Shown here in pieces: positions 2,110-53,907 of a DNA stretch of 64,000 bases. The DNA is taken from positions 144,292 to 208,291 of the forward strand of contig JAUJOY010000003.1 in NCBI GenBank assembly GCA_030447385.1. Direction: 5' to 3'. This DNA is from Mycobacteriales bacterium. Its GTDB lineage: Bacteria > Actinomycetota > Actinomycetes > Mycobacteriales > SCTD01. The position numbers were made by a program, and so were the translations under genes. Within the stretch, counting starts at the first letter, position 1. Every line of letters begins with the position of its first letter. The notes below the pieces were generated by a model. The model had not been told where the DNA came from. It made no database searches and was given only the letters and a program-made list of their open reading frames with translations.

Positions 2110-2559
2110 TCAGGCCTGCATCGAGCGCACGGCGGCCGTCAAGGCCTCGGCGTCGAGCACGTCGGCCATCAGCCCGATCTGCTCTTCCCAGACGTCGTCC
2201 GGCACCTCAGCCTTCACGGCGTCGTCAAGCACGTGGTACACCTCGAGGCCCAACTGGACCCCTGCCAAGGCACCTGCATAAGCCGGATCCCCCTTGATCA
2301 CCGTCTCGGCTGAGATCTCGGCGGCCTCCGGATCGGGGGCCCCGAGCAGCACGACCAGTGCACTGGGGTCGTTGGCTTTAGTGAGCCGGAGGATGGCCTC
2401 CTGGCTCTGCAGGTCCATGGCTCCTGACGCCGTTCAAACGAAGCACTCGGTGGCCATGAAGGCCACCTCGGCTCCGGCCGCCTTGGCGCAGGCCGCGATG
2501 GCCGTCCCCGAGATGCCGTCACGCTCTCCGAGAGCGATGACCTTCCGGTCCTGGAGCAT
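2110..2559 (-). CDS. grdA: Glycine/sarcosine/betaine reductase complex selenoprotein A (GrdA); in-frame TGA at 2434..2436 read as selenocysteine
   Basis: ATG at 2559 is preceded by GGAAGGAGG. The translation is [61 protein letters not shown]...[23 protein letters not shown]... The CFV-U-TA(A/S)GAMDL core and the AGxLAGVxLGLxVYH block match GrdA as I remember it. The ORF track only shows the part after the TGA (2110..2418). Confidence 0.88.
2386..2424 (-). promoter_or_regulatory. Candidate SECIS-type stem-loop downstream of the grdA UGA
   Basis: Starting 9 nt after the TGA: GGAG-CC-AUGG ... CCAU-C-CUCC (long-range stem). An alternative local hairpin is CC(A)GGAGG-ccau-CCUCCGG. Hand-folded only. 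Confidence 0.35.
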
Positions 2560-2562
2560 GGG

Positions 2563-2904
2563 CTAACTCACCTCCTTCCGCTGCTCGTCCAGCCACGTGT
2601 TCAGTCCTTCCGGCGACAGCGAAGGGTCGGAGAGCCGACCTACTTCCTCACCGTCACGGAACAACAAGAAGGCGGGGAGGCCCATGATGCCGAGCTCCAT
2701 GCACAGCCGACGGGCCTTGGGCGCTTCTACCTTGATCACCCTCATGTCGCCGGCGTACTTCTCGGCGAGAGCCTCGACGTGGGGGAGGAGCACCTTGCAG
2801 GGCTGACACTGGGGTCCCCACACGTCGACGAGCACGGTGCCTTCGGAGACCAGGTCGCGAAAGTCGCTTCCCGTCGCGTCCACAATGCCGGCGGAGCCGG
2901 TCAT
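2563..2904 (-). CDS. Thioredoxin-family protein (CQPC active site) embedded in the grd operon
   Basis: MTGSAGIVDATGSDFRDLV...VLVDVWGPQCQPCKVL...; 113 aa. Its ATG overlaps the grdC stop (ATGA at 2901..2904) and its stop lies 3 nt before the grdA ATG. The longer ORF-track version (to 3051) is an R/P/G-rich extension overlapping grdC. Confidence 0.85.
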   Translation of the reverse strand: MTGSAGIVDATGSDFRDLVSEGTVLVDVWGPQCQPCKVLLPHVEALAEKYAGDMRVIKVEAPKARRLCMELGIMGLPAFLLFRDGEEVGRLSDPSLSPEGLNTWLDEQRKEVS

Positions 2905-4325
2905 GCCGACACCTGATTCCGTTCCAGCATCACGCTCATCCCATCCGACAACTGGCACATCCTGCCGAGGAACAGGCTGCCCTTGGCGATCAGCATTACC
3001 CGGTCTGCCGACCCGGCCGTCAGCCGGTCCAGCGCGTGCGGAACGTAGCACAGCGACGAGGCCAGATGACCTTGCGTCGGGCTGTAGCCGGGCATCCCGC
3101 GTTCGGCGACGAAGGCGGCGATGTCGTCCTTGGCGATGTCCCCTCTGCGGGCGGCGAGGGCCGCGATCGTGCGGTAGTTCCGCTCCGGGACGTTGCCGCT
3201 GCCCTGGGGCTCGGTCAGCTCAGGGTTGTGCAGCTCCGTGGCGTAGTCGTCGACGGCCGTCATCGGCATGCCCAGGCCCGCCAGGGGCTTCACCACCAGC
3301 GCCTCCATCACCTGCGGATTGGAGCCGCCTGCGGACACCGGATGCCTGCCGACGCTGTCCAGCCGGACGCGGGGGGAGGAGCCGTCGTCGGCCTCGACGA
3401 TCATCGCCGTCCCACCGAGCAGATCTTCCAGCACGGGCATGTTGTTCTTCAGATGCCCCTGGAACTTCATCCCGAGCTTGGCCATGGAACCCCCGGCGAC
3501 GACCGCCACCCGGCCGAAGACCCCGGCCGACACGAGGCTGGCGGCGATGACCATCGCGGGAACGGGCGCGGCGCAGAAGTTCTTGACGTCGGCTCCCGAC
3601 GCCTGGCTGAGCCCGGCTGCGGCCGCGACGGCCTTGGCCATGTTGCCGCCGCCTCGCTGGTATCGGTCGCCGATGGCTTCCTCGCCGCAGCCAAGGACGT
3701 AGTCGACGGACGCCGGGTCGATGCCGGCGCTCTCGAGCAGGTGCAGCAGCGCTAACGTGGCAGTCGCCTTGGCCGCCAGATTGTCCAGCAGTACGTGGGC
3801 GCCGAGCGCCTCGTCGTCCACGTCTCCGCACCGGAAGGCGGCGCCGCCGCCGATCACGCTCAGGGCACCGGGCTCGGCCGCCGCCGCGTCCACGTCACCG
3901 CCGGCGCGCTCCACCCGTTCGAGGTCCAGCCGCTTGGCGAGCGGGTGGCGAGCCAGGTCAGCGGCGGCGCGCGCGACCGCGTCGTCGGAGAGGGTGAGCA
4001 GGTTGAAGTCGTCAACGCCCGCCAAAAGCCCGAGGAACTCCGCTTCCGGCATGATCTCGCCCGAGCGGCTCCAGCGGGAAGCACCCTCGGCTGCGGCGTC
4101 ACCCCACCAGGGACGGACCGGCAGGTCGCGCGGGTGCAGCGCGTTCACGTAGGCCTGGTTGGCGGGATAGGCGACCGCATCATCGAAGCTGCGCAACGCC
4201 GAGGTGAACTGGGCCGCCACCTCGTCGGACTTGGCCAGCTCCCGGCGGGGCTTGGAGCCATGCCGAGCCAAGGAGGGCACGTGGGCCAGCACCTGGCTGC
4301 TGCCCGAGATCACCACCTTAGGCAT
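2901..4325 (-). CDS. grdC: Glycine reductase complex protein C, beta subunit (GrdC, thiolase/KAS-like)
   Basis: MPKVVISGSSQVLAHVP..., ...FDDAVAYPANQAYV..., GCGEEAIGDRYQRGGGNMAKAVA, VKNFCAAPVPAM (acyl-Cys region), ...KGSLFLGRMCQLSDGMSVMLERN. These blocks match GrdC as I recall it. The start overlaps the grdB stop by 8 nt. Confidence 0.85.
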   Translation of the reverse strand: MPKVVISGSSQVLAHVPSLARHGSKPRRELAKSDEVAAQFTSALRSFDDAVAYPANQAYVNALHPRDLPVRPWWGDAAAEGASRWSRSGEIMPEAEFLGLLAGVDDFNLLTLSDDAVARAAADLARHPLAKRLDLERVERAGGDVDAAAAEPGALSVIGGGAAFRCGDVDDEALGAHVLLDNLAAKATATLALLHLLESAGIDPASVDYVLGCGEEAIGDRYQRGGGNMAKAVAAAAGLSQASGADVKNFCAAPVPAMVIAASLVSAGVFGRVAVVAGGSMAKLGMKFQGHLKNNMPVLEDLLGGTAMIVEADDGSSPRVRLDSVGRHPVSAGGSNPQVMEALVVKPLAGLGMPMTAVDDYATELHNPELTEPQGSGNVPERNYRTIAALAARRGDIAKDDIAAFVAERGMPGYSPTQGHLASSLCYVPHALDRLTAGSADRVMLIAKGSLFLGRMCQLSDGMSVMLERNQVSA

Positions 4326-5664
4326 GGTCCGCCCCTGCGGCTGCGGCCACCGGCATCTTCGGCGGCGTGGAGGAACGAGCCTGGCCGGCCTCGAAGACCG
4401 TGGGCTCGTCCACCGCGGTCTGCAGCGCCTCGAGGGCACAGTCGACGAGCTGGCGGCGCCACCGCTTCTCCGCGTCCGCGTCGAGCGAGGGGTCTCCCGT
4501 GGGATACGGGATGCCCCGGGTGCGCACGATGCGGGGCGCCCCCACCCGCTCGGCGATCGACACCAGATTGCAGAGCAGCGCCGTGGGGATCCCGGCCCGC
4601 TCCAACTCCTTCGCTAGCGTTGACCCGCAACGCGTTCCCGTACCTCAAGTGGCGGTCAGGATCGCGGCCCGCGCGCCGGAGCGGCGCAGGTCGGCGGCCC
4701 ACTCGACGCCGAAGCGGCGGGCATTGGCCACCGAGGTGCCGTTACCCGTGGTGACGAAGTACTCCCCGAGCAGCCCGCCGATCGCTCCCTCGGCCTCGAG
4801 CTCGCGCGCCGCGTCGAGGGGCAGGATGCGGTGAGGGTCCTCGTTCGCCCAGGCCGTCGAGAAGCCGCCGTGCACCGACATGTAGTCCCCAGGCGCCAGG
4901 GCGTCGCGGTCCTCGAGGGGGTAGCGGAGCCACTTCGTGGCACGGGCGGACTCGAGGCCGTCGGGGTTGTCGGCGACGACCAGCCCGCCTTCGGAAACGA
5001 GGGCGAGCATCACCGTGGAGGCGTCCGCAACCGGCGCCGCCGGCGTGACCCGGTCGAAGCGGGGCAGGGGGATCTCGGTCGCGGCCGCATCGCCGCCGAG
5101 CCGGGCAAGTGCCAGGTCGACGGCGCGCGTTGCCGCGTTGTCGTCGGTCACGACCGTCAGTCGCGCCGCTGCGCCGATGCGCCCGTCCTCGGCGGTCAGC
5201 GTCTCGCCGGCGAGCAGGCGCCGGATGCCGGCGGCCAGACGCTCGAGGGAGGGGGCCATCCTCCGGGCCACCTCCCCGCTGGCCACCACGGGCGCCGCGC
5301 CGGCCTCGTCCAGCCCAGGGTTGTCCTCGTGCATCGAGGCCACACTGGCCACGCCTGCCTGGTGGGCAGCGGCCACTACCCGGGCGCAGGCCAGGCCGTA
5401 GCGGCCGCTGGTGAACGCCGGACCTGCGACCACCAGGTCCGGGTCGGCCGAGCGCACCAGGCCGACGATCTCGTCGACCTTGTCCGCCGCCACGTCGTCC
5501 CCGCACCACACGGTGGCCACGATCTCGTGCTCGGGCGCCACCAGCTCGGCCAGACGCCGGCCGGGGCCTGAGGGACCGTCGAGCAGGAGCGGCCCGGTTC
5601 CCGCGGAATCCTCACCACCGACGCCGGCGAAGAACTGGTTGATGTAGTGCACGATCCTGGCCAT
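4318..5664 (-). CDS. grdB: Substrate-specific selenoprotein B subunit of a Grd-type reductase (GrdB/GrdF/GrdH family); in-frame TGA at 4645..4647 read as selenocysteine
   Basis: GGAGG lies 8 nt upstream of the ATG at 5664. The N-terminus is MARIVHYINQFFAGVGGED (typical GrdB). ORF 4645..5679 ends ...ARAAILTAT-TGA, and the same frame continues GTGTRCGSTLAKELERAGIPTALLCNLVSIAERVGAPRIV...GDPSLDADAEKRWRRQLV... (ORF 4318..4605). The TGA sits in the conserved (S/A)T-U-GT.TRCG motif. Confidence 0.88.
4617..4633 (-). promoter_or_regulatory. Candidate bacterial SECIS hairpin for the grdB UGA
   Basis: On the coding strand, 11 nt after the TGA: GCGUUG-cgggu-CAACGC. This is a 6-bp perfect stem with a 5-nt G/U-containing loop, and the spacing matches that of the E. 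coli fdhF-type element. Confidence 0.5.
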
Positions 5665-5714: not shown

Positions 5715-6968
5715 TCAGCCGGAGCGGGCGGCAATGCGGCCCCAGCCGAGCGGACTGAGAGCGCAGTAGACCACGGCAGTGGGCACCTCGAACGATGCCG
5801 CCGCCGGCGCCTTCACCAGGGCGAACTGCTCCCCGCCGTACGCCTTCTCCATCTCCGGCAGGTGCAGGACATGGTCGTAGTTGCCCGTGCTGACCATCGC
5901 CGTGGCCCGCTCGGGTGCCACGACCACCGAGGGGCCGGTGCCATCGACGCCGGCCATCTCGGCGTAGAGGCCGACGGGTTGGATGCCGAGGTCGACGAGC
6001 GCGTCCATCTTCAAGGCCACGTCGGCGTCGGCGTTACCGCCGCCCTCCTTGGTGACGATGGCGGCGTCGAAGCCGGCGGCGGCACACACCTTCGCGGCGA
6101 ACAGGGAGATCAGCTCCTTGGCGCCCTGCTCGACGGGCTCCGGACAGATGACCAGGCCCGCGAACTCCACGTCGTTGCCGTGCCGGCGCCGCAGCTCATC
6201 GACGACCGGATGGTTCTGGTGCATGAAGGTCGGGTTCTTCAGGGCCGGGTGGCCGAACTGCCCACTCACCACTGCACCGTCGTCGAGCTCACCGGGATCG
6301 AGCAGGGTGGGCAAGCCGGCGCCGAAGCTGCGCCCGTAGACGAAGACGTCCTTGAACGAGCCCTGGGTCTGCAGGTTGGTGACGACGCCGATCCGGGGCA
6401 GGTCCCCGCCCCTGGCCCCGGCTGAGGGCGAGGGAAGCTCTTCGACGGCGTCAGGGGCCGCGTCCAGGGACGCCTCTGCCAGTGCGGCCGCCAGCCGAAG
6501 CGCGCCGCGGCGCAGCGCCGCGTCCACCCGTTCCCACTGTGCTCCCTGCGCGGGGGTGAACTCGACGACCAGGTTGTGCGTCGCGCCCAGCGGCGACAGC
6601 GCCGCCGCCGGCCCGCTGAGGTCGACCAGCGCCTCTTGAGCCCGCGGCAGGAACCCTGCCGTGACCACGGTGGCGCCTCGCAACACGTGCGTCTCGCCGC
6701 TGCCCTGCGGGCGGGCGGGACCGACGAAGCCGGGAAAGATGCCACCCCCGCCGGGCCCCTTGCTCCGTGGCTCGACGGCGTCGAGGACCTTGACGATGCG
6801 GGCGCTCTGGCCGGGCGAGACCCACGAGAGCTCCACGGCGGCCAGTGCCTCGTCGGCCAGCAGACCGCGGGCCTGCTCGGCCGAGACGGTCAGCACCCCG
6901 TCGGCGAAGCTCGTCCGCTGTCCGAAGCCGACCTCCCGGACCTGATGCACCAGCCTGGTGAGCGCCAC
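5715..6968 (-). CDS. grdE: GrdE/GrdG/GrdI-family subunit of Grd-type reductase protein B (possibly the unprocessed, GrdI-like type)
   Basis: ...ARIVKVLDAVEPRSKGPGGGGIFPGFVGPARPQGSGETHVLRGATVVTAG... and ...HQNHPVVDELRRRHGNDVEFAGLVI... match GrdE blocks. The GTG at 6968 gives an N-terminus (V)ALTRLVHQVREVGFG that is colinear with clostridial MRLE.G.IFIKD.QFG. An alternative ATG lies at 7001. Confidence 0.8.
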   Translation of the reverse strand: MALTRLVHQVREVGFGQRTSFADGVLTVSAEQARGLLADEALAAVELSWVSPGQSARIVKVLDAVEPRSKGPGGGGIFPGFVGPARPQGSGETHVLRGATVVTAGFLPRAQEALVDLSGPAAALSPLGATHNLVVEFTPAQGAQWERVDAALRRGALRLAAALAEASLDAAPDAVEELPSPSAGARGGDLPRIGVVTNLQTQGSFKDVFVYGRSFGAGLPTLLDPGELDDGAVVSGQFGHPALKNPTFMHQNHPVVDELRRRHGNDVEFAGLVICPEPVEQGAKELISLFAAKVCAAAGFDAAIVTKEGGGNADADVALKMDALVDLGIQPVGLYAEMAGVDGTGPSVVVAPERATAMVSTGNYDHVLHLPEMEKAYGGEQFALVKAPAAASFEVPTAVVYCALSPLGWGRIAARSG

Positions 6969-7125
6969 GTGCGCATACTGCCACCCCGGCCCGGGTGGCA
7001 TGGTTCTCGTCGTCCCTGTCCGGTCCCTCGCTCCCCCTGGGCCACGTGCGTCACCCGAGCTCGTGACCGGTCGCCGATGACTTTCCGTACACCGTCCGGT
7101 CATAGTGTCCAACCGGGAGGAAGCC

Positions 7126-8531: not shown

Positions 8532-8833
8532 GCCGGCGGACGCTCAGGCGCGGCTCCCAGCCAGGTGAGCGTGGTGTCCGCGGGCCTGGATGGCGACGAG
8601 CGCGTCAGCAGCGCCCCGGAGCACGCCGCTTCCACCCGCCATGTGCAGCCCCTGCCGGAGCCTCGGCCGGGCCTGCTGGGCGGCGCCCGGCCAATCACCA
8701 GTAATGCCCGTCCTTTCGAGCCGGAAACCCGTTTCCGGCATCGTGGACTTTTCTCGCAGACAGGCGGAAGGTGTGCCCTGCGCCGCCGCCCTTCCGGACC
8801 CCCCGCCAGAGAGCGCGACGCAGGAGCTGCCCG

Positions 8834-9499
8834 ATGGATGCTGCCGCCGCACTCGAGACCCACGACCTGCCGACGGCCATGTGCGCGCCGCACGAGATGG
8901 CGTTCACGGCATTGGACGACGCGGAGGGAGGCGCCTTCGCCGCCGTCGCCTGGTGCTCCGCGCACCTGGTCGCCGCCCATCGGGTGCTCTATGCAGAGGC
9001 CGCCAAGCGGCTGCCCGACGGCGCACGGCGGGTCCGCGTGCAGCGGGCGGTCGACCACCGGCTCGAGCAGGCGGTGTGCCGGCTGGACCGCAAGCTCACC
9101 GGCGACACGCACCTGTGCGGGACGTCCGTCACCGAGCTCGCGGAACAGGTGCGGGCGGTGCTGAGCGAGCACGCGGCGACGGAGGCCGAGCTGGTGGCCG
9201 ACCTGATGGGCATCCTGGACGAGCAGGAGCAGGAGCAGGTCGCCACGCGCCTGGCAAAGGCGATGCGGTGCGCCCCCACCCGGCCGCATCCGCACACCCG
9301 CCACATGCCGCTCGGCGGCCTGGTCTCCCGGCTGGACGCGTGCATCGACCGGGCTCGCGACCTCATGGACAACCGCGTCGTCCCGACGCCCTACAACGCC
9401 CGAGCCCCCCGCACTCCCGGGCGCTGGGCGTGCTACCTGATGGGGACGCCCTACCCGACGGCTCCCGTGCACGAGGTGAGCGAGCGGGCGCAGGCCTGA
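8834..9499 (+). CDS. Hypothetical protein, possibly hemerythrin-like (HHE cation-binding type) domain
   Basis: MDAAAALETHDLPTAMCAPHEMAF...; helical, His/Glu/Asp-rich, with a ...APTRPHPHTRHMP... segment that I associate with actinobacterial hemerythrin-like proteins. Assigned from memory only. Confidence 0.5.
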   Translation: MDAAAALETHDLPTAMCAPHEMAFTALDDAEGGAFAAVAWCSAHLVAAHRVLYAEAAKRLPDGARRVRVQRAVDHRLEQAVCRLDRKLTGDTHLCGTSVTELAEQVRAVLSEHAATEAELVADLMGILDEQEQEQVATRLAKAMRCAPTRPHPHTRHMPLGGLVSRLDACIDRARDLMDNRVVPTPYNARAPRTPGRWACYLMGTPYPTAPVHEVSERAQA

Positions 9500-10180: not shown

Positions 10181-10362
10181 CCGCGTCCGGCCCGCTCGGC
10201 GCCCGGACCCGCGGCGCCGGACCGCCAGCCGGGTCGCCCAGCCCGGTGCTCGCCGGCGGGGGGTGGCAAGCCCGGGCCCCTGGATCCACAGGACTGCGCC
10301 GCTGCGCACGAAGCACCTTCTGCAGCGGGGACAACGAGGTACAAAGGCGCCGTGTACTTCCC

Positions 10363-13300
10363 GTGCTGAGGCTGCACCGCGCCGAGCGCGCCGACGTGCT
10401 GGCCGACGCGCTGGCGCAGGTGCTCGCGCAGCCGTTGCCGGATCCGTTCGCTGCCGAGGTCGTGGCCGTTCCCGCAAAGGGTGTCGAGCGCTGGCTGACC
10501 CAGCGGCTGTCGACGGTCCTCGGGGCTGCTTCAGGCGGGGGGGACGGAGTCGCCGGCAACCTCCGCTTCCCCAGCCCCGCACGGCTCGTCGAGGAGTGCG
10601 TCGTGGCCGGCAGCGACGTCGTCCCCGAGGACGACCCGTGGGCGCCGGCGAGGCTGCTGTGGCGACTGCTGGAGGTGATCGACGACTGCCTCGACGAGCC
10701 GTGGTGCAGCGTCCTCTCGCGGCATCTGGGTCGGGGTGAGGACGAAGCGCGTGCCGGTCGCCGCTACGCCACCGCCGAGCACCTGCGCGACCTGTTCCGC
10801 TCCTACTCCGCGCACCGCCCGGCGATGCTCGTCGACTGGGCTGCCGGCATCGACTCGGACGGCGCGGGCCGGCCGATGGCCCCGGACCTGGCCTGGCAGG
10901 CGGAGCTGTGGCGGCGGCTGCGTACGTCCCTGGACGCGCCCAGTCCGGCAGAGCGGCTGGACGAGACCTGCGCGCGCCTGCGGGACGAGCCGCACTGCAG
11001 CGACCTGCCCGAGCGGCTGTCGCTGTTCGGCGCGACGCGGCTCACGACCGAGCAGCGCGCTGTCCTGCGGGCCCTCGGGGAACACCGCGACGTGCACCTG
11101 TGGCTGCCGCACCCGAGCCCTGCGATGTGGGCGGTGCTGCAGGAGGCGCCCGCGACCTCCCGCCGCCGTCAGGACCAGACCGTGCTGAAGGTCGGCAACC
11201 CGCTGCTGGCGAGCCTTTCCCGTGACACCCGCGAGCTCCAGCTGCTGCTTGCGGGAGTGCCCGAGACGCATCACGCCGCAGCGCACGAGCCGGACACCCT
11301 GCTCGCCGCACTGCAGGCCTCGATCCGCAACGACGCCGCGGATCCCGCGGCCGCCCGGCCGGACGGCACCGTCCAGGTCCATGCCTGTCACGGGCCGCCG
11401 CGCCAGGTGGAGGTCCTGCGCGAGGCCCTGCTTCACCTGTTCCAGCAGGACGGCACCCTCGAGCCACGCGACGTCCTGGTGATGTGCCCGGACGTCGAGA
11501 CCTACGCGCCACTGATCCGCGCCGCCTTCGGTCAGCCGGGTGCGGCCCACCCGGGGCACCGCCTGCGGGTACGCCTCGCCGACCGCTCGTTGCGCCGGAC
11601 CAACCCGCTGCTGGACACCCTGGCCGGCCTGCTGGCGCTTGCCGACGGCCGCGTGACCGCCAGCGAGGTGTTGGACCTGGCGGCCAGCGCCCCCGTACGC
11701 CGGCGCTTCGGGTTCTCCGAGGACGACCTGGAGCGGCTGCAGGACTGGGCCGCCCGGGCGAATGTGCGGTGGGGGCTCGGGCGGCAGCAGCGCGAGGCGT
11801 ACGCGCTCGGCGGGGTGCCGCAGAACACCTGGGACACCGGTCTCGACCGCATCCTGCTCGGGGTCGCCGCGGACGAGAGCGAGCTCGGCTGGCTCGGCCT
11901 CGCGCTGCCGCTCGACGACGTGGACAGCAGCGACATCGACCTCACGGGTCGGGCGGCGGAGCTGGTCGACCGGCTCGACCGGGTGCTGCGCCGGCTCCAG
12001 GGCACGGAGCCGGTCTCAGGCTGGTTCGACGCGCTGAGCGAGGCGCTCGACCTGCTCACCGAGGTGCCCGAGGACGACGCCTGGCAGCTCGCTCAGGCAC
12101 GTCGTCAGCTGGCCGAGGCCGCGGAGCACGGGCCCGACGTGGTGCTGCGGCTGGCGGACGTCCGCGCGCTGCTCGCCAGCCGCCTCGCGGGGCGCCCGAC
12201 CCGCGCGAACTTCCGCACCGGCGAGCTCACCGTGTGCACGATGGTGCCGATGCGCTCGGTGCCGCATCGCGTCATCGCCCTGCTCGGGCTCGACGACGGC
12301 GTGTTCCCACGCACCGGCGGTGTGGACGGTGACGACGTCCTGCAGCGCGACCCGTGCCTCGGCGAGCGCGACCCGCGCAGCGAGGACCGCCAGCTGCTGC
12401 TCGACGCGGTGATGTCGGCGGGGAGCCACCTGCTGCTGCTCTACACCGGTGCCGACCCGGTCACCGGGGCGACCCGCCCGCCGGCGGTGCCGCTCGGCGA
12501 GCTGCTCGACGCCGTGCGCGCCGGCGTCGGGATGGACGCGATGGCGGAGGTCGTCTCCCGTCATCCGCTGCAGCCCTTCGACGCCCGCAGCTTCCGGCCC
12601 GCCGCGCCGTTCAGCTTCGACCGCGCTGCCCTGGCGGGGGCGGTCGCCTCGGCCGCACCGCGCACGCCGGAGCCGCCGTTCCTGCCGGAGCCGCTGCCCG
12701 AACGCCCTGCCGACGTCGCACTGGCCGAGCTCGTCGCGTTCCTCGTCCACCCTCCGCGAGCCTTCCTGACCCGCCGCGTCGGCGTGCACGTCCCCGACCG
12801 GGAGGCGTCGGTCGCCGATGCGCTGCGCGCCGAGCTGGACCCTCTGCAGAAGTGGGAGGTCGGGGACCGCATGCTCGCGGCCCGGCTCGCCGGGGTGGGG
12901 GTGTCCGAGTTCGTCCAGGCGGAGTGGCGACGCGGCACGCTGCCCCCCGGACCGCTCGGGATGCGCCTGCTCGACGAGCTGGAGCGGGCGGTCGAGCCGC
13001 TGGTCGCTGCCGCTGCGCAGATCCAGGTCGGGGCACCCCGCTCGCTCGACGTCGTCGTCGAGCTCGGCGCCGGCCGGCGCCTCATGGGCACGGTGAACGG
13101 GATCTACGGCGAGGTGCTGGCCGGCACGTCGTACTCCAGGTTGGCCCCCAAGCACCGCCTCTCCGCATGGGCCGGACTGCTCGCCGCCGCCTGCTGTGGA
13201 GCGGACGCGCCCGCGACAGCGGTGACCACCGGTCGCGGGCCGCACAAGAGGCCGGTGTGGCGCTCGGTCCTCCGCGTGCCGCCGGCGCCCTTCGACGTCC

Positions 13301-13617
13301 TGCGCGATCTCGTCGCGCTGTACGACGAGGGCATGCGCGAGCCGCTGCCGGTAGCTCCCGGCGCCTCGCACGAGTACGCCACGCGGCGGCAGCGGGGGAA
13401 CAGCGCTCCGGAGGCGCTGGAGGCCGCGAGCAAGGAGTGGGACTCGCGGTACGGCGACAGCACGGACCGCCACCTGGCCTATGTGCACGGCGCCGGTGCG
13501 TCCTTCTGCGGCCTCACCGCGGCTGGCGCCCCCGGGGAGGAGACGACCCGCTTCGGTGCGCTTGCGCGGCGGCTGTGGGGACCCCTGCTGGCCGTCGAGG
13601 TCCTGGGCGCGCCATGA
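10363..13617 (+). CDS. recC: Exodeoxyribonuclease V gamma subunit (RecC)
   Basis: ~1084 aa. The N-terminus (V)LRLHRAERADVLADALAQVL is typical of RecC. It is followed by recB and recD with overlapping stop/start codons. The start is uncertain (the ORF opens at 10246). Confidence 0.85.
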   Translation: MLRLHRAERADVLADALAQVLAQPLPDPFAAEVVAVPAKGVERWLTQRLSTVLGAASGGGDGVAGNLRFPSPARLVEECVVAGSDVVPEDDPWAPARLLWRLLEVIDDCLDEPWCSVLSRHLGRGEDEARAGRRYATAEHLRDLFRSYSAHRPAMLVDWAAGIDSDGAGRPMAPDLAWQAELWRRLRTSLDAPSPAERLDETCARLRDEPHCSDLPERLSLFGATRLTTEQRAVLRALGEHRDVHLWLPHPSPAMWAVLQEAPATSRRRQDQTVLKVGNPLLASLSRDTRELQLLLAGVPETHHAAAHEPDTLLAALQASIRNDAADPAAARPDGTVQVHACHGPPRQVEVLREALLHLFQQDGTLEPRDVLVMCPDVETYAPLIRAAFGQPGAAHPGHRLRVRLADRSLRRTNPLLDTLAGLLALADGRVTASEVLDLAASAPVRRRFGFSEDDLERLQDWAARANVRWGLGRQQREAYALGGVPQNTWDTGLDRILLGVAADESELGWLGLALPLDDVDSSDIDLTGRAAELVDRLDRVLRRLQGTEPVSGWFDALSEALDLLTEVPEDDAWQLAQARRQLAEAAEHGPDVVLRLADVRALLASRLAGRPTRANFRTGELTVCTMVPMRSVPHRVIALLGLDDGVFPRTGGVDGDDVLQRDPCLGERDPRSEDRQLLLDAVMSAGSHLLLLYTGADPVTGATRPPAVPLGELLDAVRAGVGMDAMAEVVSRHPLQPFDARSFRPAAPFSFDRAALAGAVASAAPRTPEPPFLPEPLPERPADVALAELVAFLVHPPRAFLTRRVGVHVPDREASVADALRAELDPLQKWEVGDRMLAARLAGVGVSEFVQAEWRRGTLPPGPLGMRLLDELERAVEPLVAAAAQIQVGAPRSLDVVVELGAGRRLMGTVNGIYGEVLAGTSYSRLAPKHRLSAWAGLLAAACCGADAPATAVTTGRGPHKRPVWRSVLRVPPAPFDVLRDLVALYDEGMREPLPVAPGASHEYATRRQRGNSAPEALEAASKEWDSRYGDSTDRHLAYVHGAGASFCGLTAAGAPGEETTRFGALARRLWGPLLAVEVLGAP

Positions 13618-16600
13618 GCTTCGACCTCTACGGCGAGCTGCCGCGGGGCACGTCGGTCCTCGAGGCCAGCGCCGGCACGGGCAAGACCTGGACGATCGCG
13701 GCGCTCGCCACGCGCTACGTCGCCGAAGGTGTGGCCGAGCTGTCGGACCTGATGCTCGTCACGTTCGGGCGGGCCGCCACGCAGGAGCTGCGCGAGCGCG
13801 TACGCGAGCGGCTCGTCTCCACCGTGCGCGGGCTCGGACGCGACGGCGACGACCCGCTGGTGAAGCACCTGTCAAGGGCGGGGCCGGAGGAGGTGCAGCT
13901 GCGGCGGCAGCGCCTTCTCCGGGCGCTGTCGCAGTTCGATGCCGCCACCATCGCGACGACGCACAGCTTCTGCGAGCAAGTCCTGAAGGGGCTCGGCTTC
14001 GCCGGGAACGCCGATCCCGGGGCCACCCTCGTCGAGTCGGTCGACGACCTGCTGCGTGAGGTGGTCGACGACCTCTATCTGCGCAAGTTCGCCGTGCACA
14101 CGGCTGCGCCGCCGGCGATCACCGCGGGCGAAGCGAGAGAGGCCGCGCGGGCGGCGATGCGGGACCGCCAGGCCCGGCTCGAGCCGGCATCGGCCGACCC
14201 GGCGTCCGGGCCCGGTCAGCGGGTGGGGATCGCCCGCGCGGCGTGCGTCGAGCTCGCCCGGCGCAAGAGCGCGGCGGGCATCCGGGACTTCGACGACCTG
14301 CTGTTCCTGCTGCGCGACGTGCTGGTCGACCCGGCCTCCGGGCAGGCGGCCTGCGCTCGGCTGCGGGCGCGCTACCGCGTGGTGCTCGTCGACGAGTTCC
14401 AGGACACCGACCCGGTGCAGTGGGAGATCCTGCGCGTTGCGTTCCACGGCCACGCCGCGCTGGTCCTGATCGGCGACCCCAAGCAGGCGATCTACGCCTT
14501 CCGGGGAGCGGAGGTGCTCAGCTACCTGTCCGCCGTGCGCGAGGCCGACCGGCACGAGACGCTCGCCACCAACTGGCGCAGCGATGACGGACTGCTGCGC
14601 GCCCTGGACCACCTCTACGGCGGCGCTTCACTCGGCCACCGGCAGATCGTCGTCCGTCCGGTCGTGGCAGCGCACGCCGCCCGGCGTCTCGGTGATGGTG
14701 CTCCGCTGCGCCTGCGGGTGCACCCCCGCACGGGTTCCGGGCCGCTCGGGAAGAGCGGTTTCCCGGCGGTCGCGGCACTGCGCGAGACGGTTGCCGCTGA
14801 CGTGGCCGCCGACGTCGTACGCCTCCTGCACAGCGGCACCTCGCTCCGTCACCAGGGCGGGTCCCGGCCGGTACGTCCAGGCGACGTCGCGGTGCTCGTA
14901 CGCCGGCACGTGCAGGCGGCGGCCGTGCAGGCGGCGCTGGACCGAGCCGACGTGCCCTCGGTGATGTCGAGCAGCACGAGTGTCTACGCCACCCCCAGCG
15001 CGCGCGACTGGCTGTGGCTGCTGCACGCCCTCGAGCAGCCGCACCGAGCGGCACGGGTACGCCTTGCGGCGCTGACGCCGCTGCTCGGCTGGACCGCGCC
15101 ACGCCTCGACGCGGCGGGGGACTCCGGCACGGACGAGGTGGGGGCCCTGCTGCGCGAGGCGGCGCAGCTGTTCGAGCAGGCGGGCCTGGCCGCCGTGTTC
15201 GAGCGGTTCTCGGCGCGTACCCGCCTCGACAGCCGGCTGCTCGCTCAGGAGGGAGGCGAGCGGCGGCTGACCGACCTGCGACACCTCGCGCAGTCGCTGA
15301 ACCGCGCTGCGGTCGAGGGCTCGCTCGGGCTCGCGGCGCTGGTCAGCTGGCTGTCCGAGCGCGTGGAGGACCCGGAGGCGGCAAGCCTGTCCGACCGCAG
15401 CCGGCGGCTGGAGAGCGACGCTGCGGCGGTGCAGGTCGTCACGGTGCACGCCAGCAAGGGGCTGGAGTTCCCGATCGTCTACGTGCCCTACGGGTGGGAC
15501 GGCGCGAAGAACCCGTCCTCGACGACCCTGCGGCTCCACGACCCCGACGGCGCACGGGTGCTGGACATCGGCGGCAAGGACGGGCCCGGGTGGGCGCAGC
15601 GCAAGAAGACGGCTGACGTCGAGGACGACGGCGAGGAGCTGCGCCTGCTCTACGTCGCACTGACCCGGGCGCAGTGCCAGGTCGTCCTGTCCTGGGCACC
15701 GGGAGCGGTCACCGCCGGAGCCCCGCTGCACCGGCTGCTGCTGGGGCGCACGCAGGGCGAGCCCGCCCCGTCCGCGCGCGCGGCCGTTCCCGAGGACGCA
15801 GCTGCGCTCACCCGGCTCGCCGCGTGGGGGTGGCCGGAGGAGATCTCGGTGGAGCCGGTCGGAGCCGTCGCTGCGGTTCGCTGGCAGCCGGACCAGGAGG
15901 AGCCGGGGTCGCTGGCGGCGGCGCGATTCGACCGGACGCTCGACATGGCCTGGCGGCGCACGTCCTACTCGGCCCTCACCTCGACGGTGCACGACGCTCC
16001 GCGCGTCGGCAGCGAGCCCGAGGAGCCAGAGACGACCGACGAGCCGGCGTCCTCCTTCTCCCTGGCAGAGGACCTGACGCCGGCCGGGCCGCCGTCCCCG
16101 ATGAACGGCCTGGCCGGCGGCGCCGCCTTCGGCACGCTCGTCCACGGCGTGCTGGAGGCCGTCGACACCGCCGCGGACGACCTGCCCGCGGAGCTCCTCG
16201 GGCGATGCCGTGCCGCGGTGGCCTCCCGGCTGTCGTCGGCGGAGCCGGCCGCACTGGCCGCTGCGCTGCTCGCGGTGCTGCGGACCCCGCTGGGGTTCGG
16301 CACGCTCGCAGAGGTCGCCCCGGCCGACCGGCTGGTGGAGATGGACTTCGAGCTGCCGCTCGCCGGGGGCGAGGACCCCACGAGCTCACCGGTCCTGCTG
16401 CACGACATCGCCGGACTGCTGCGGCGCCACCTGCCGGCGGACGACCTCCTCCTGCCCTACGCCGACCTGCTGCAGACGGTGGACGCGCTCCCGCTGCGCG
16501 GCTACCTGTCGGGCAGCATCGACGCGGTGCTGCGGCTGCCGGGACCGGCCTACCTCGTCGTGGACTACAAGACCAACCGGCTCGGGCGGGGCGACCTGAC

Positions 16601-16868
16601 CGCGCTGCACTACACGCGCGAGGCGATGGCCGCGGAGATGCTGCGCGCGCACTACCCCTTGCAGGCGCTGCTCTACTGCGTCGCCCTGCACCGGTTCCTG
16701 CGGTGGCGCGAGCCCGGCTACGACCCGGCGGTGCACCTGGCAGGCGCGCAGTACCTGTTCCTGCGGGGGATGGTCGGGCCGGCCACCCCGACCGGCTGCG
16801 GAGTCTTCGACTGGAGGGTGCCGGCCGAGCTCGTGGTGGCCCTGTCCGACCTGCTGGCCGGGTCATGA
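13614..16868 (+). CDS. recB: Exodeoxyribonuclease V beta subunit (RecB), UvrD-like helicase plus PD-(D/E)XK nuclease
   Basis: MSFDLYGELPRGTSVLEASAGTGKTWTIAAL (Walker A), VLVDEFQDTD, and the C-terminal nuclease motif GSIDAVLRL...LVVDYKTN. The ATG overlaps the recC stop (ATGA). The ORF-track frame is open from 12354, but that part is R/P-rich shadow. Confidence 0.9.
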   Translation: MSFDLYGELPRGTSVLEASAGTGKTWTIAALATRYVAEGVAELSDLMLVTFGRAATQELRERVRERLVSTVRGLGRDGDDPLVKHLSRAGPEEVQLRRQRLLRALSQFDAATIATTHSFCEQVLKGLGFAGNADPGATLVESVDDLLREVVDDLYLRKFAVHTAAPPAITAGEAREAARAAMRDRQARLEPASADPASGPGQRVGIARAACVELARRKSAAGIRDFDDLLFLLRDVLVDPASGQAACARLRARYRVVLVDEFQDTDPVQWEILRVAFHGHAALVLIGDPKQAIYAFRGAEVLSYLSAVREADRHETLATNWRSDDGLLRALDHLYGGASLGHRQIVVRPVVAAHAARRLGDGAPLRLRVHPRTGSGPLGKSGFPAVAALRETVAADVAADVVRLLHSGTSLRHQGGSRPVRPGDVAVLVRRHVQAAAVQAALDRADVPSVMSSSTSVYATPSARDWLWLLHALEQPHRAARVRLAALTPLLGWTAPRLDAAGDSGTDEVGALLREAAQLFEQAGLAAVFERFSARTRLDSRLLAQEGGERRLTDLRHLAQSLNRAAVEGSLGLAALVSWLSERVEDPEAASLSDRSRRLESDAAAVQVVTVHASKGLEFPIVYVPYGWDGAKNPSSTTLRLHDPDGARVLDIGGKDGPGWAQRKKTADVEDDGEELRLLYVALTRAQCQVVLSWAPGAVTAGAPLHRLLLGRTQGEPAPSARAAVPEDAAALTRLAAWGWPEEISVEPVGAVAAVRWQPDQEEPGSLAAARFDRTLDMAWRRTSYSALTSTVHDAPRVGSEPEEPETTDEPASSFSLAEDLTPAGPPSPMNGLAGGAAFGTLVHGVLEAVDTAADDLPAELLGRCRAAVASRLSSAEPAALAAALLAVLRTPLGFGTLAEVAPADRLVEMDFELPLAGGEDPTSSPVLLHDIAGLLRRHLPADDLLLPYADLLQTVDALPLRGYLSGSIDAVLRLPGPAYLVVDYKTNRLGRGDLTALHYTREAMAAEMLRAHYPLQALLYCVALHRFLRWREPGYDPAVHLAGAQYLFLRGMVGPATPTGCGVFDWRVPAELVVALSDLLAGS

Positions 16869-18703
16869 GGGCGCTGCTCGCCTCCGGGCTGCTGGCCGAC
16901 TTCCACGACGCCGGGGTCCTGGCCGCGGCCGATGTCCACGTCGCCCGGCGGCTCGGGGCCCTGGCCCGCGAGGGCGCCGAGGAGGTGCTGCTCGCGGTCG
17001 CCCTGGCCGTGCGCGCCGTGCGCCTCGGGTCGACGTGCCTGGAGCTCGACCGGATGCGCCAGGTCGCGGTGGACGAGGAGCACGATGTCGACGTCTCGAC
17101 CCTGCCGTGGCCGGAGCCCGACGCCCTGCAGAGGGCGCTGCGCAGCAGCCCGCTGGTCACCGGCGCCGCAGGGGCGACCCTCCGGCCGCTGCGGCTCGCG
17201 GAGACTGACGGGGGCCCGCTGCTCTACCTCGACCGCTACTGGCGACAGGAGCAGTCCGTACGCCGGCAGCTCGACGACCGCGCGCTGACCCGGCCCCCGG
17301 CCGATCTCGAGGCGGTGCGGCGGCGGATCGCGGAGCTGTTCCCGGACCCGTCCGCGCCGGACCGTCAGCGCATCGCTGTGGCGCTCGCGGCGACGAGGTG
17401 GACCACGATCCTCGCGGGCGGGCCCGGCACGGGCAAGACGACCACGGTCGGGCGGGTGCTCGCCCTGCTCGACCGGCCGGGGCTGCGGGTGGCGCTGGCG
17501 GCTCCGACCGGCAAGGCCGCCGCTCGGCTGCAGGAGTCCGTGCGGGAGCAGGCACCCGGTCTGGGGCTGCCGGCGGAGCTCACCGCGACGACGCTGCACC
17601 GGCTCCTCGGCTGGCGGGCCGACAGCAGGACCCGGTTCCGCCACGACAGCGCCAACCGACTCCCGTACGACGTCGTCGTGGTCGACGAGACCTCGATGGT
17701 GTCGCTGACGATGATGGCCCGGCTGCTCGACGCCGTGCGGCCGGACACGCGGCTGATCCTCGTGGGCGACCCCGACCAGCTGACGTCGGTGGATGCCGGA
17801 GCCGTTCTCGCCGACCTGGTGGCGCGGCCGGTCCGGGCCGCCCCCGATGCGGCGCTCGCGCAGCTGGTGGGAGCGGATCTGGCCGGCGCGGACGACGCCG
17901 CCGAGACCGGCCTGGACCCGCAGGAGCGGTCGCGGCTGGCGAACGGCGTCGTACGGCTGACCCGTGGTCGCCGCTTCGGCGGGACGATCGCGCGGCTCGC
18001 CGTGGCGGTGCGCCTCGGCGACGCGGACCTCGCGCTGGAGCTGCTGCGGAGCGGGGCGTCGGACGTCTCCTTCGTCGAGCCGGGCGACGTCGAGGCGGTG
18101 CGTCAGGACGTCGTGTCCTGCGGGCAGGGGGTGACGGAGGCGGCGGCCGGCGGCCGGGTCGAGCTGGCGCTCGCGCGGCTGGAGGAGCACCGCCTGCTGT
18201 GCGCCCACCGGCGCGGCCCCTACGGCGTGACCGCATGGGACCGGCGGGCCGGGGAGTGGGTGGCCACCGCCCTCCGGCGGGCTCCGGAGCAGGCGCGCTG
18301 GTACGCCGGTCAGCCGCTGCTCGTGACGAAGAACGACCACGAGGCCCGGATCTACAACGGTGACACGGGAGTCGTCGTGGAGACCGGCGGGGGCGACCTG
18401 GTCGCGGCGTTCTCGCGGGGCGCCACACCCGTGCTCCTCCCGGTGGGGCGGCTCTCCGACGTCCAGACGGTCTACGCGATGACGATCCACCGGAGCCAGG
18501 GCAGTCAGTACGAGACGGTGTCGGTCGTGCTCCCGCCTCCGACGTCGTCACTGCTCACGCGGGAGCTGCTCTACACCGCGATCACCCGTGCCCGCAGGCA
18601 TGTTCGCGTGGTCGGCACCGCCGAGACCGTACGCGCCGCGATCGACCGGCAGGTGCTGCGGGCCAGCGGCTTGCGGCGGGTGGTGAGCGGAGCGGACGCC
18701 TGA
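16865..18703 (+). CDS. recD: Exodeoxyribonuclease V alpha subunit (RecD)
   Basis: MRALLASGLLADFHDAGVL..., GGPGTGKTTTV (Walker A), VVVDETSMV, YAMTIHRSQGSQY. The ATG overlaps the recB stop (ATGA). Confidence 0.9.
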   Translation: MRALLASGLLADFHDAGVLAAADVHVARRLGALAREGAEEVLLAVALAVRAVRLGSTCLELDRMRQVAVDEEHDVDVSTLPWPEPDALQRALRSSPLVTGAAGATLRPLRLAETDGGPLLYLDRYWRQEQSVRRQLDDRALTRPPADLEAVRRRIAELFPDPSAPDRQRIAVALAATRWTTILAGGPGTGKTTTVGRVLALLDRPGLRVALAAPTGKAAARLQESVREQAPGLGLPAELTATTLHRLLGWRADSRTRFRHDSANRLPYDVVVVDETSMVSLTMMARLLDAVRPDTRLILVGDPDQLTSVDAGAVLADLVARPVRAAPDAALAQLVGADLAGADDAAETGLDPQERSRLANGVVRLTRGRRFGGTIARLAVAVRLGDADLALELLRSGASDVSFVEPGDVEAVRQDVVSCGQGVTEAAAGGRVELALARLEEHRLLCAHRRGPYGVTAWDRRAGEWVATALRRAPEQARWYAGQPLLVTKNDHEARIYNGDTGVVVETGGGDLVAAFSRGATPVLLPVGRLSDVQTVYAMTIHRSQGSQYETVSVVLPPPTSSLLTRELLYTAITRARRHVRVVGTAETVRAAIDRQVLRASGLRRVVSGADA

Positions 18704-22324: not shown

Positions 22325-23392
22325 TCAGCGGGACCCGCCTGCTCCGGCTCGCAGTGGCGTGTGCTCAGCCGGCACCGTCTCCTCCGGCCGGGGCGGTGGT
22401 GGTGCGGTGCCGTCGCCGAAGGGCCGGCCCCCGAGCGACTCCCGGTCGTGCGGCGTCACCCACCCCGACAGGTCCGGACCGGCGGGGACGATGCCGGTGG
22501 GGTTGATGTCGCGGTGCACCTCGTAGTAGTGCCGCTTGATGTGGTCGAAGTCGGTGGTGTCACCGAAGCCCGGGGTCTGGAACAGGTCACGGGCGTACGC
22601 CCACAGCACCGGCAGCTCGCTCAGCTTGCTCCGGTTGCACTTGAAGTGGCCGTGGTAGACGGCGTCGAACCGGGCGAGCGTGGTGAACAGCCGCACGTCG
22701 GCCTCGGTGATGGTGTCGCCCACCAGGTAGCGCTGCCCCGACAGCCGCTCGGTCAGCCAGTCCAGCCGGTCGAACAGCTGGGCGTGGGCCTTCTCGTACG
22801 CCCGCTGCGTGCCGGCGAACCCGCAGCGGTAGACGCCGTTGTTGACGTCGCGGAAGACCAGCTGGTTCACCTCGTCGATCTCCTCGCGAAGCTCCTCCGG
22901 GTAGAGCTTCGGTGCGCCGGGCCGGTGGTGCTCCACCCACTCGGTCGACAGGTCGAGGGTGATCTGCGGGTAGTTGTTGGTGACGACCTGGCCGCTCGGG
23001 ATGTCCACGATGGCGGGGACCGTGATGCCGCGGTCGTAGTCGGGGTAGCGCGCGAGGAACGCCTCCTGCAGCCGCTCGATGCCGAGCACCGGGTCGCGCC
23101 CGTCCGGATCCAGGTCGAAGGTCCAGCTGCGGGCGTCGTGCGTCGGGCCGGTGACGCCCATGGACAGCACGTCCTCGAGGCCCAGCAGCCGGCGCACGAT
23201 GATCGCCCGGTTGGCCCACGGGCACGCCCGGCTCGCCACGAGCCGGTAGCGCCCCGGTTCCACGGGATAGCCGTCGCGTCCGTCCGCGGTGATCCGGGTC
23301 GCGATGTAGCGCTGGTCCCGGCTGAACTCCCCGGAGGGGTCGACGTAGGTGCCGCCGCTGGGCGCCGCCGTCGCGGTTGCTGTGTCAGTCAT
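22325..23392 (-). CDS. yqjG: Glutathionyl-hydroquinone reductase (Xi-class GST, YqjG/ECM4 family)
   Basis: MTDTATATAAPSGGTYVDPSGEF...RYRLVASRACPWANRAIIVR (CPWA active site)...ITVPAIVD...; 355 aa. Confidence 0.88.
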   Translation of the reverse strand: MTDTATATAAPSGGTYVDPSGEFSRDQRYIATRITADGRDGYPVEPGRYRLVASRACPWANRAIIVRRLLGLEDVLSMGVTGPTHDARSWTFDLDPDGRDPVLGIERLQEAFLARYPDYDRGITVPAIVDIPSGQVVTNNYPQITLDLSTEWVEHHRPGAPKLYPEELREEIDEVNQLVFRDVNNGVYRCGFAGTQRAYEKAHAQLFDRLDWLTERLSGQRYLVGDTITEADVRLFTTLARFDAVYHGHFKCNRSKLSELPVLWAYARDLFQTPGFGDTTDFDHIKRHYYEVHRDINPTGIVPAGPDLSGWVTPHDRESLGGRPFGDGTAPPPPRPEETVPAEHTPLRAGAGGSR

Positions 23393-23467
23393 GAGGCGGT
23401 CGTTCCCCGGCGATCGACGGGTACGCAGCCCCCGCCCGATCCCGTTCGGCGCGTCGCCGTCCTCCAG

Positions 23468-24820
23468 GTGGCCGCTCATTACCCTGTCCGGGTGGCCGAC
23501 GACTTCGTCATCGCCCGCAACCCCGATCCCGGGTCGGCGTTGCCGTACCTGCTGCGCCTCCCCCTTCCTGGCCGGCCGGTCGTGCTGAAGGCCCGGGAGA
23601 CCTGGCCGCGCACCAGCAAGGTCTACTGCCACCGCGCGGAGTCCTGGCCGGACGAGCCCGACGTGGTCGAGCGCGTCCCGGTGCGGTCCTGCACGGCGCG
23701 CGGACCGGCCGTCGACCTCGTGCTCGACCGGGGCCGCGAGAACCGCAGCCAGCTGGTCTTCACCCGCCTCAAGGGCGGGCGGGAGGCGATCTTCTGGCAG
23801 AGCGCCAGGACGGCGAAGAAGGCCCGCCCAGGCGTCCGCATGCCGACTGCCCGCGCCAGCGGCGTCCAGGACCTGGAGATCGTGGTCGACAGCCGCGAGC
23901 GGTACGCCTACCGCTTCACCTCCCAGCGCGCCACCACGGTGAAGGGCTCCCTGTCCTGCGGCGACTACGGGCTGGTCCGCGAGGGCGCGGCGCTCGCGGT
24001 GGTGGAGCGCAAGTCGCTGGAGGACTTCGCGCGCAGCCTGGTGGACGGGCGACTGGGCGCCCAGCTGGGCGAGCTGGCGAGCCTCGCGTACAGCGCGGTC
24101 GTCGTGGAGGAGCGCTACTCCCGGCTGTTCACGCTGCCCTACGTCCAGCCGGGCTTCGTGGCGGACCTGCTCGTCCGGGTGCAGGTGCGCTGGCCGGGCG
24201 TGCCGGTGTTCTTCGCCGAGACGCGGCCGCTGGCGGAGGAGTGGACCTACCGCTTCCTCGCGGCGGCCGCGGCCGAGAGCACCAGCGCGCAGCGCACGCA
24301 CGTCCGCCTGGACGCTCTGGTCTCACCCGGTCCGCTGGCAGCGCCACGGCCCACGCCCGCCCAGGTGCGGGCGTGGGCGGTCGCGCAGGGGCTGCCGGTG
24401 TCGGACAGGGGACGGGTTCCCGCCGAGGTGAGCAGCGCCTACGCGCGCACTCCACCGGCCCCTGATCAGGTGCCGAGCTGCTCCGACGCCAGCCGGACGC
24501 CCTTCTCCCTGGCCGCGATCTTCTGGAACGCGATGTCGCGGGCGAAGTCGGGTGAGCCGTGCTTGGGCTTGACGTCGATGCTGAACGGGCTGAAGCCGCA
24601 GTCGTCGGTGGCTCCCAGCTGGTCCAGGGGGATGTGCTTCGCGGCGGTCACCAGATCGGCCGCGATCTGCTCGGGCGTCTCCACCTCCGGGTTGAGCGGG
24701 TCGACGACGCCGACGAAGGCCACCTGCTTCACGCCGTTCGCGTCGGCCCGGATGTTCTCGCCGATCAGCCGGTACACCCGCTCCTTGTCGTCCTCGCTGG
24801 CGAGCTGGATCAGGAAGTAG
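23468..24820 (+). CDS. ERCC4-type (XPF/Mus81-like) nuclease domain protein with an Lsr2-type C-terminal DNA-binding domain. The last ~120 codons run antisense into the next gene and are probably not genuine protein
   Basis: ERCC4 signature: VVDSRERY...CGDYGLVREGAALAVVERKSLEDFARSL (GDXnERKX3D). This is followed by RPTPAQVRAWAVAQGLPVSDRGRVPAEVSSAYA, which closely resembles the Lsr2 C-terminal domain (IREWA...G..VS.RGRIPA.V..AY). The first in-frame stop is TAG at 24818..24820. The start is a GTG at 23468 or 23492. Confidence 0.7.
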   Translation: MAAHYPVRVADDFVIARNPDPGSALPYLLRLPLPGRPVVLKARETWPRTSKVYCHRAESWPDEPDVVERVPVRSCTARGPAVDLVLDRGRENRSQLVFTRLKGGREAIFWQSARTAKKARPGVRMPTARASGVQDLEIVVDSRERYAYRFTSQRATTVKGSLSCGDYGLVREGAALAVVERKSLEDFARSLVDGRLGAQLGELASLAYSAVVVEERYSRLFTLPYVQPGFVADLLVRVQVRWPGVPVFFAETRPLAEEWTYRFLAAAAAESTSAQRTHVRLDALVSPGPLAAPRPTPAQVRAWAVAQGLPVSDRGRVPAEVSSAYARTPPAPDQVPSCSDASRTPFSLAAIFWNAMSRAKSGEPCLGLTSMLNGLKPQSSVAPSWSRGMCFAAVTRSAAICSGVSTSGLSGSTTPTKATCFTPFASARMFSPISRYTRSLSSSLASWIRK

Positions 24821-53862: not shown

Positions 53863-53907
53863 GGAGGAAGCTGCCGCAGGCGGGCCCGCCGAAAAGGCGG
53901 GTGCAGC

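Follow-up and report, generated by a model that had tools for sequence, protein, structure and literature searches.

Can a Grd-type selenoenzyme operate without the cysteine from which the pyruvoyl group of its substrate-binding subunit is formed, and if so, on what kind of substrate? The question is raised by a five-gene operon in a 64,000-nucleotide stretch of DNA from a Mycobacteriales bacterium (assembly GCA_030447385.1, contig JAUJOY010000003.1, positions 144,292 to 208,291; hereafter the window), whose grdE-like gene encodes a subunit lacking the Asn-Cys cleavage site. Grd-type enzymes are the standard examples of selenoproteins in anaerobic Stickland metabolism, and to our knowledge their substrates number only five: glycine, sarcosine, betaine, D-proline and, recently, fluoroacetate. 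The feature described here is a conserved variant of this known enzyme system. We consider it fairly probable that the operon encodes a pyruvoyl-independent, selenocysteine (Sec)-dependent reductase of a carboxymethyl compound, whose E subunit would not be a proprotein.

The grdE-like gene (5715..7001, minus strand) encodes a 428-residue substrate-binding subunit of component B. Its entire length is covered by a match to PF09338, the family of glycine/sarcosine/betaine reductase component B subunits (340 bits, E = 1.6e-101), as befits the E-type subunit of a Grd system in the broad sense. An NCBI protein (P0001) has exactly the same sequence (100% identity), and both start at the ATG at 7001. 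Most orthologs, at 415–417 residues, are shorter, with a start some 11 codons further on (GTG near 6968); the choice between these starts has no effect on the missing-cysteine finding. Close relatives share 70–98% identity and come from metagenome-assembled genomes (MAGs), those with names being Acidimicrobiales, Acidimicrobiia or Actinomycetota; we take the host to be an uncultured bacterium of Acidimicrobiales type.

Positions 6255-6266 (minus strand) encode S246-G-Q-F249 of this protein, where the site reads DGAVVSGQFGHPALKNPTF. It aligns without gaps with DGAILSGNCVSACDKNPTY of Acetoanaerobium GrdE and SGNCVAPCDKVTT of P. acidaminophilum GrdG, which places Q248-F249 opposite the Asn-Cys cleavage dipeptide and A253 opposite the second conserved cysteine. 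The complete replacement loop, VVSGQFGHPALKNPTF (6225..6272, minus strand), stands in place of the canonical cleavage and pyruvoyl-forming motif SGN/CVSACDKNPT in an ungapped alignment with GrdE, GrdG and GrdI. As references we used grdG and grdF as annotated in P. acidaminophilum, the source of the characterized sarcosine reductase, together with GrdE and GrdB from A. noterae and from Photobacterium. The aligned motifs were LSGNCVSACDKNPT for A. noterae GrdE and TSGNCVAPCDKVTT for P. acidaminophilum GrdG, and Photobacterium GrdE was aligned as well. Over 45 residues around the site no gap was needed among GrdE (DGAILSGNCVSACDKNPTYVHMNNPVI), GrdG (DGAITSGNCVAPCDKVTTFHHLNNPVI), GrdI (DGAMISGSFMPCSSKWSTYDFQNFPMI) and the window protein (DGAVVSGQFGHPALKNPTFMHQNHPVV), and the register is certain because the flanking blocks DGA..SG, KN.T and N.PV are shared with the references. 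Both conserved cysteines are gone: the entire cysteine complement of the protein is C286, C306 and C413, the nearest lying 37 residues from the site. The initial annotation, made from the sequence alone, had given the clostridial GrdE motif correctly, and its account of Gln-Phe in place of Asn-Cys, conserved flanks and no nearby cysteine is confirmed.

Among characterized systems, the betaine-specific GrdI offers the closest parallel at this position. The two GrdI orthologs that we used, from Enterococcus gilvus and A. noterae, each lie directly upstream of GrdH and a BCCT-type transporter; the E. gilvus neighbors are annotated as grdH and BCCT family transporter, and those in A. noterae were assigned from sequence. 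When the P. acidaminophilum megaplasmid was searched for GrdI, the best match was still GrdG, so the GrdI of this species is not encoded there. Both orthologs likewise have Phe at the cysteine position (SGSFMPCSSKWST), reading SGSF where the window protein reads SGQF. GrdI and FarE have no such cysteines and, for that reason, have been described as unprocessed rather than as proproteins (PMC10838667); that GrdI is unprocessed had also been stated in the initial annotation. The C421A and C421S variants of PrdA are also unprocessed (PMC11229817). With no cysteine at the cleavage position of the window protein, neither cysteinolysis nor a pyruvoyl group would be expected at the canonical site, and the substrate is therefore probably something other than glycine.

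The replacement is not confined to one genome. Scanning a single genome for each GTDB species gave 79 loci; 77 of them belong to the window clade (56–98% identity), all in MAGs. Loop conservation was counted in 69 full-length orthologs from MAGs labeled almost without exception Acidimicrobiia or Actinomycetota, and gave the consensus VVSGQ[F/Y/L]GHP[A/S/G]LKNPT. Seven residues (Q248, G250, H251, P252, L254, K255 and N256) were invariant in 69 of 69, and residue 249 was Phe in 46, Tyr in 16 and Leu in 7. Cys, Ser and Thr do not occur at position 249 in any of the 69 orthologs. Such strong purifying selection marks the QFGHPxLKN-type loop as a selected alternative state, not decay. The E subunit has no solved relative in the PDB by sequence or profile search, and Foldseek returned no match at E ≤ 0.001 for its AlphaFold2 model (mean predicted local distance difference test score, 94.3); the PF09338 fold appears to be structurally uncharacterized.

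Beyond this clade, a HMMER search run exhaustively over 1.84 billion cluster representatives yielded 942 clusters (E ≤ 0.001). Only 8 of 122 full-length representatives, drawn from the best 150 of the 942 clusters and thus from a sample biased toward the query, have Cys in the F249 column. Seven of these eight show it in a G-N-C-V context, and Tyr or Phe is usual elsewhere. In this query-biased sample the Cys-less state is common in the E-subunit family, contrary to the rarity of cysteine loss that the initial annotation had implied. We found no relevant publication linking this Acidimicrobiia clade with glycine, betaine or sarcosine reductase or with selenocysteine.

The grdE-like gene heads an operon in the order grdE-like, grdB-like, grdC, thioredoxin (Trx) and grdA, all on the minus strand. 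The grdB-like gene (4318..5664; PF07355, E = 1.5e-103) encodes a selenoprotein of 448 residues including Sec, and reading past its in-frame TGA (4645..4647) continues the C-terminal part of GrdB; a GrdB-family subunit with Sec at the active site, as in Grd systems broadly defined, is therefore present. It is followed by grdC for the component C beta subunit (2901..4325; NF040746, 541 bits with a cut-off of 450; PF19364, DUF5940), a thioredoxin gene with the active site WGPQCQPC (2563..2904; PF00085, E = 1.1e-17) and grdA for the 149-residue selenoprotein A (2110..2559; PF04723, E = 3.6e-56; NF040748, 192 bits with a cut-off of 130), whose in-frame TGA lies at 2434-2436 (ECFV-U-TASG). The TGA was found in 71 of 71 loci in which the grdB motif was located and in 60 of 60 for the grdA motif. 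G+C content at third codon positions (GC3) is coding-like, at 0.86–0.88. The E-B-C-(Trx)-A order is held across the clade loci, from about 70 species-level MAGs. In the most divergent subclade (L063, L066, L072 and L073), trx and grdA are not nearby and a DAO-family flavoprotein is found next to the operon.

A candidate bacterial Sec insertion sequence (SECIS) hairpin, GCGUUG-CGGGU-CAACGC with a 6-bp stem (4617..4633, minus strand), starts 14 nt after the U of the grdB UGA. RNAalifold retained a single hairpin 3' of this TGA, with the consensus GCGUUG-CGGGK-CAACGC. Across 70 distinct sequences, each of the six third-codon positions between +12 and +31 is at least 99% conserved, while flanking wobble sites vary freely. 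Frozen synonymous sites of this kind are what a functional RNA element would leave at the place where a bacterial SECIS is expected, and the hairpin is probably a SECIS element outside any Rfam family: Rfam searches of the whole window, with permissive settings on the operon, found no riboswitch and no annotated SECIS family. For grdA we claim no such element, as pairing of the hairpin 3' of its TGA (+35 to +48) was 82%, barely above the 72% of a slid control. Neither tRNA-Sec nor any other tRNA was found within the 64-kb window, and selenium-insertion genes are not among the window genes. Conservation of the loop, the gene order and the TGA codons, together with the constraint on the hairpin, indicates that the operon is maintained as a selenoprotein system rather than being a relic.

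We compared the subunits with models of the characterized enzymes. At full length, the B subunit clears the cut-off of one model alone, TIGR01918 for the broad subfamily (406 bits; cut-off, 65). It falls below the models for GrdB (TIGR01917, 369 bits against 602; A. noterae GrdB control, 946), GrdF (NF040794, 407 against 800) and GrdH (NF040795, 360 against 775; E. gilvus GrdH control, 798). The E subunit likewise falls below those for GrdG (NF040793, 244 against 780) and FarE (NF053623, 144 against 675), and the D-proline reductase models gave 34 bits for E (PrdA, TIGR04480; cut-off, 700) and 69 for B (PrdB, TIGR04483; cut-off, 300). Using the sequence motifs of Nobu et al. (PMC9751293), the B subunit fails three of the six elements of the GrdB motif, which the A. 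noterae GrdB control matches, and does not match the GrdF motif, which the P. acidaminophilum GrdF control does. The Sec motif also departs from the classical UxxCxxC, with Gly for its first Cys: every clade member (71 loci) reads T-U-G-T-G-T-R-C. U-G-T-C-T-R-C is present in seven of seven classical loci (GrdB, GrdF and GrdH) versus U-G-T-G-T-R-[C/S] in five of five sampled non-classical systems, namely the window clade, a Chloroflexota MAG and three other metagenome contigs. GrdA and GrdC, by contrast with the B and E subunits, exceed their NCBIfam equivalog cut-offs, as expected of a Grd system in the broad sense, and the downstream carboxymethyl chemistry is therefore probably retained.

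Neighbor-joining trees of E subunits with bootstraps recovered the window clade (together with P0121, P0127 and P0125) with 96–100% support. The GrdI clade, supported in 100%, joined the window clade in 0 of 100 bootstraps and was placed, weakly (48/100), with the Asn-Cys proteins GrdE and GrdG. GrdI thus appears to have lost its cysteine inside the classical group, whereas the window protein belongs to a separate, broad radiation that generally lacks it. In the alignment and phylogeny that the initial annotation had suggested, the protein is Cys-less like GrdI but does not group with it. Judged from models and trees, the enzyme is not an ortholog of the glycine, sarcosine, betaine, fluoroacetate or proline enzymes.

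Its likeness to each known system is accordingly partial. With the glycine reductases of Clostridium/Acetoanaerobium sticklandii and P. acidaminophilum it shares the E (PF09338), B (PF07355, with Sec at the same codon), A (Sec), C and thioredoxin families and the blocks flanking the cleavage site; it differs in lacking Asn-Cys, in having UGTGTRC rather than UGTCTRC, in its gene order E-B-C-Trx-A with no grdD or trxB nearby, and in failing TIGR01917 and the published GrdB motif, and identity is 36% for E and 43% for B. Betaine reductase (GrdI/GrdH) also has an E-type subunit without both cysteines and with Phe at the Cys position, and by analogy only, Sec might directly displace a good leaving group in both enzymes with no Schiff base. 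The loops, however, are dissimilar (SFMPCSSKW in GrdI, QFGHPALKN in the window), and GrdH keeps UxxCxxC. In the fluoroacetate reductase of Cloacibacillus porcorum, FarE has no processing cysteines and FarB lacks the CxxC after Sec (PMC10838667). The window enzyme resembles it in the Cys-less E subunit, in the use of GrdA/GrdC machinery and in departing from CxxC, although the window B subunit has lost the first Cys only. It is set apart from FarE/FarB by the FarE score and by its host, an environmental actinobacterial MAG rather than a gut member of the Synergistota, and no radical-SAM protein turned up in the conserved neighbor clusters or in general Pfam scans of window open reading frames (ORFs). 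PrdA and PrdB of D-proline reductase, a classical enzyme with a Cys-derived pyruvoyl group and a Sec nucleophile, are distant homologs of E and B, but fall far apart in model score; Prd operates without GrdA/GrdC, and PrdA maturation needs Cys421 and PrdH.

Genes that accompany classical systems were sought by tblastn, using two GrdD queries, one TrxB query and one BCCT query, in the window and in the 10 kb around the 77 clade loci. No grdD (PF02504) was found in the 64-kb window or within 10 kb of the operon in any of the 77 loci, although it may lie elsewhere in the genome; the same queries recovered grdD in all classical control loci, always adjacent to the cluster. The component C alpha subunit of a broadly defined Grd system is thus absent from the searched region. 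Searches for trxB and for a BCCT transporter were equally negative in the window and within 10 kb of the operon in the 77 loci. Some neighbors recur in subsets of the clade. About 10 loci carry a Cu-amine-oxidase-like gene and a class I S-adenosylmethionine-dependent methyltransferase gene upstream of the grdE-like gene (L021, L022, L028, L029, L031-L033, L044 and L081), nine carry an ODP-family metallo-beta-lactamase gene downstream of grdA (L048-L052, L057, L065 and L079-L081), and six have a DAO-family flavoprotein near the operon. We dropped these neighbors as clues to the substrate, since none is general enough to name one.

In the pyruvoyl-independent reductase that we favor, a carboxymethyl compound X-CH2-COO- would bind the uncleaved E/B pair, with the invariant Q-x-G-H-P-x-L-K-N loop presumably forming the substrate site. 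The Sec of the B subunit, acting as a selenolate within T-U-G-T-G-T-R-C, would displace X, which would depart without Schiff-base activation and might be a halide, a sulfonium or an ammonium group, either quaternary or tertiary. From there the carboxymethyl moiety would move to the Sec of GrdA and be released reductively onto GrdC as an acetyl thioester, after which thioredoxin would re-reduce GrdA. Several observations weigh against this scheme. The B subunit keeps the TxGNxTxV element, which is glycine-type in the motif of Nobu et al. where GrdF and GrdH have GTGT, so that the substrate could be small and glycine-like. A carbonyl cofactor may also be formed elsewhere, which is compatible with the sequence. 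No transporter or catabolic gene is conserved beside the operon in the 77 loci to indicate the substrate. GrdD carries out the final acetyl-phosphate step of the classical complex, and its absence within 10 kb in every clade member makes the end product uncertain; the acetyl-phosphate-forming last step may be encoded elsewhere or altered.

Three other explanations have to be set against this one. Betaine is a common osmolyte in soil, and the operon might encode a functional equivalent of GrdI/GrdH that converts glycine betaine to trimethylamine and acetyl phosphate. The cysteine-free GrdI orthologs, with their Phe at the Cys position, fit this idea, as does the fact that betaine requires no Schiff base (PMC10838667). 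Nevertheless, the B subunit reaches less than half of the GrdH cut-off, its pocket reads GNGT rather than the GTGT of GrdH and its Sec motif UGTGTRC rather than UGTCTRC, the window and GrdI clades never joined in the bootstraps, and no BCCT or other betaine transporter occurs in the 77 loci, whereas one is adjacent in both GrdI loci. A betaine substrate is therefore possible by analogy, with neither orthology nor genomic context behind it, and we regard it as unlikely. Of the initial annotation's suggestion of betaine or another non-glycine substrate, the second half stands as a reasonable one, a pyruvoyl-free enzyme with a non-glycine substrate, while the link to the betaine enzyme is one of analogy, not of orthology.

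Alternatively, the enzyme could reduce glycine (or sarcosine) and activate the amine without a Cys-derived pyruvoyl group, for example through another carbonyl modification or a residue of the Q-x-G-H-P loop. The glycine-type pocket element of the B subunit would suit such an activity, GrdA, GrdC and Trx are all present, and close homologs are labeled 'glycine reductase' or 'sarcosine reductase' at JGI. Those names are automatic, however; the B subunit fails both the GrdB model and half of the published motif elements, Ser, Thr and Cys are wholly missing at position 249 in the 69 orthologs, and we know of no precedent for pyruvoyl-free glycine reduction. We think this quite improbable. Loss of the cysteine might, finally, be loss of function in a decaying operon, as could be imagined for an uncultured host with no grdD nearby. 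The reading frames are nevertheless intact, GC3 is coding-like, the replacement loop is near-invariant, and two costly TGA-Sec codons are 100% retained, with a constrained hairpin, across about 70 species; on this conservation evidence we rejected the pseudogene reading as very improbable.

Operons of related type extend beyond the window clade. A Chloroflexota MAG (L088) has E-B-C-Trx-A without grdD and a LacI-family regulator upstream, and a soil contig has the order ABC transporter-IclR-E-B-C-A, also without grdD; on a sister-clade contig, grdD, trxB and a DASS transporter are present. The Cys-less E subunits of three contigs (L090, L091 and L092) adjoin a DASS transporter, a branched-chain-type ABC transporter with IclR, and a family-5 solute-binding protein. 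These varied neighbors suggest a set of Grd-like selenoenzymes with varied substrates. Tentatively, and with rather less conviction than for the window enzyme itself, we propose a large uncharacterized branch of Sec-dependent 'carboxymethyl-X' reductases, which would combine an uncleaved, pyruvoyl-free E subunit with a U-G-T-G-T-R-[C/S] B subunit and is sampled here in Acidimicrobiia, Chloroflexota MAGs and unassigned contigs. Their substrates would be new to the class, for instance N,N-dimethylglycine, dimethylsulfonioacetate, haloacetates or other alpha-substituted acetates, with DASS, branched-chain ABC and peptide-binding proteins as the attached transport components, and the GrdD-less product would be a GrdC-bound acetyl thioester rather than acetyl phosphate.

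The window has a G+C content of 70–76%, and its genes outside the operon are housekeeping ones, including RecBCD, HrpA, a GH65 phosphorylase and citrate synthase. RecC (Exonuc_V_gamma and RecC_C) followed by long ORFs in the RecB and RecD positions occupies 10246-18703 (plus strand); antisense ORFs of 505–590 residues over the same interval have no Pfam match and are probably spurious products of the high G+C. An 819-residue ORF at 22361-24820 (plus strand) unites an ERCC4 nuclease with an Lsr2-type DNA-binding domain, an unusual pairing. Coding-like GC3 without a Pfam match was seen at 33163-34971 (minus strand, 602 residues), 53029-54801 (minus strand, 277 and 297 residues) and 8705-9499 (plus strand, 264 residues). 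An Rv2466c-like mycothiol-dependent nitroreductase (25627-26466, plus strand) and a DsbA-like protein (56449-57207, minus strand) are consistent with an actinobacterial, mycothiol-using host.

Most of the E-subunit family diversity in our query-biased sample does without the pyruvoyl-forming cysteine. Because the Cys-less state is so widespread, the single gene with which we began is less surprising and the whole branch more interesting. In about 70 uncultured species, most of them Acidimicrobiia, one such Cys-less clade is fixed and keeps both of its Sec codons. Should these enzymes act on new substrates, they would widen the chemistry of selenoenzymes and add a selenium-dependent route to the metabolism of these bacteria, and the automatic labels 'glycine reductase' and 'sarcosine reductase' would mislead the inference of Stickland or reductive-glycine metabolism from MAGs.

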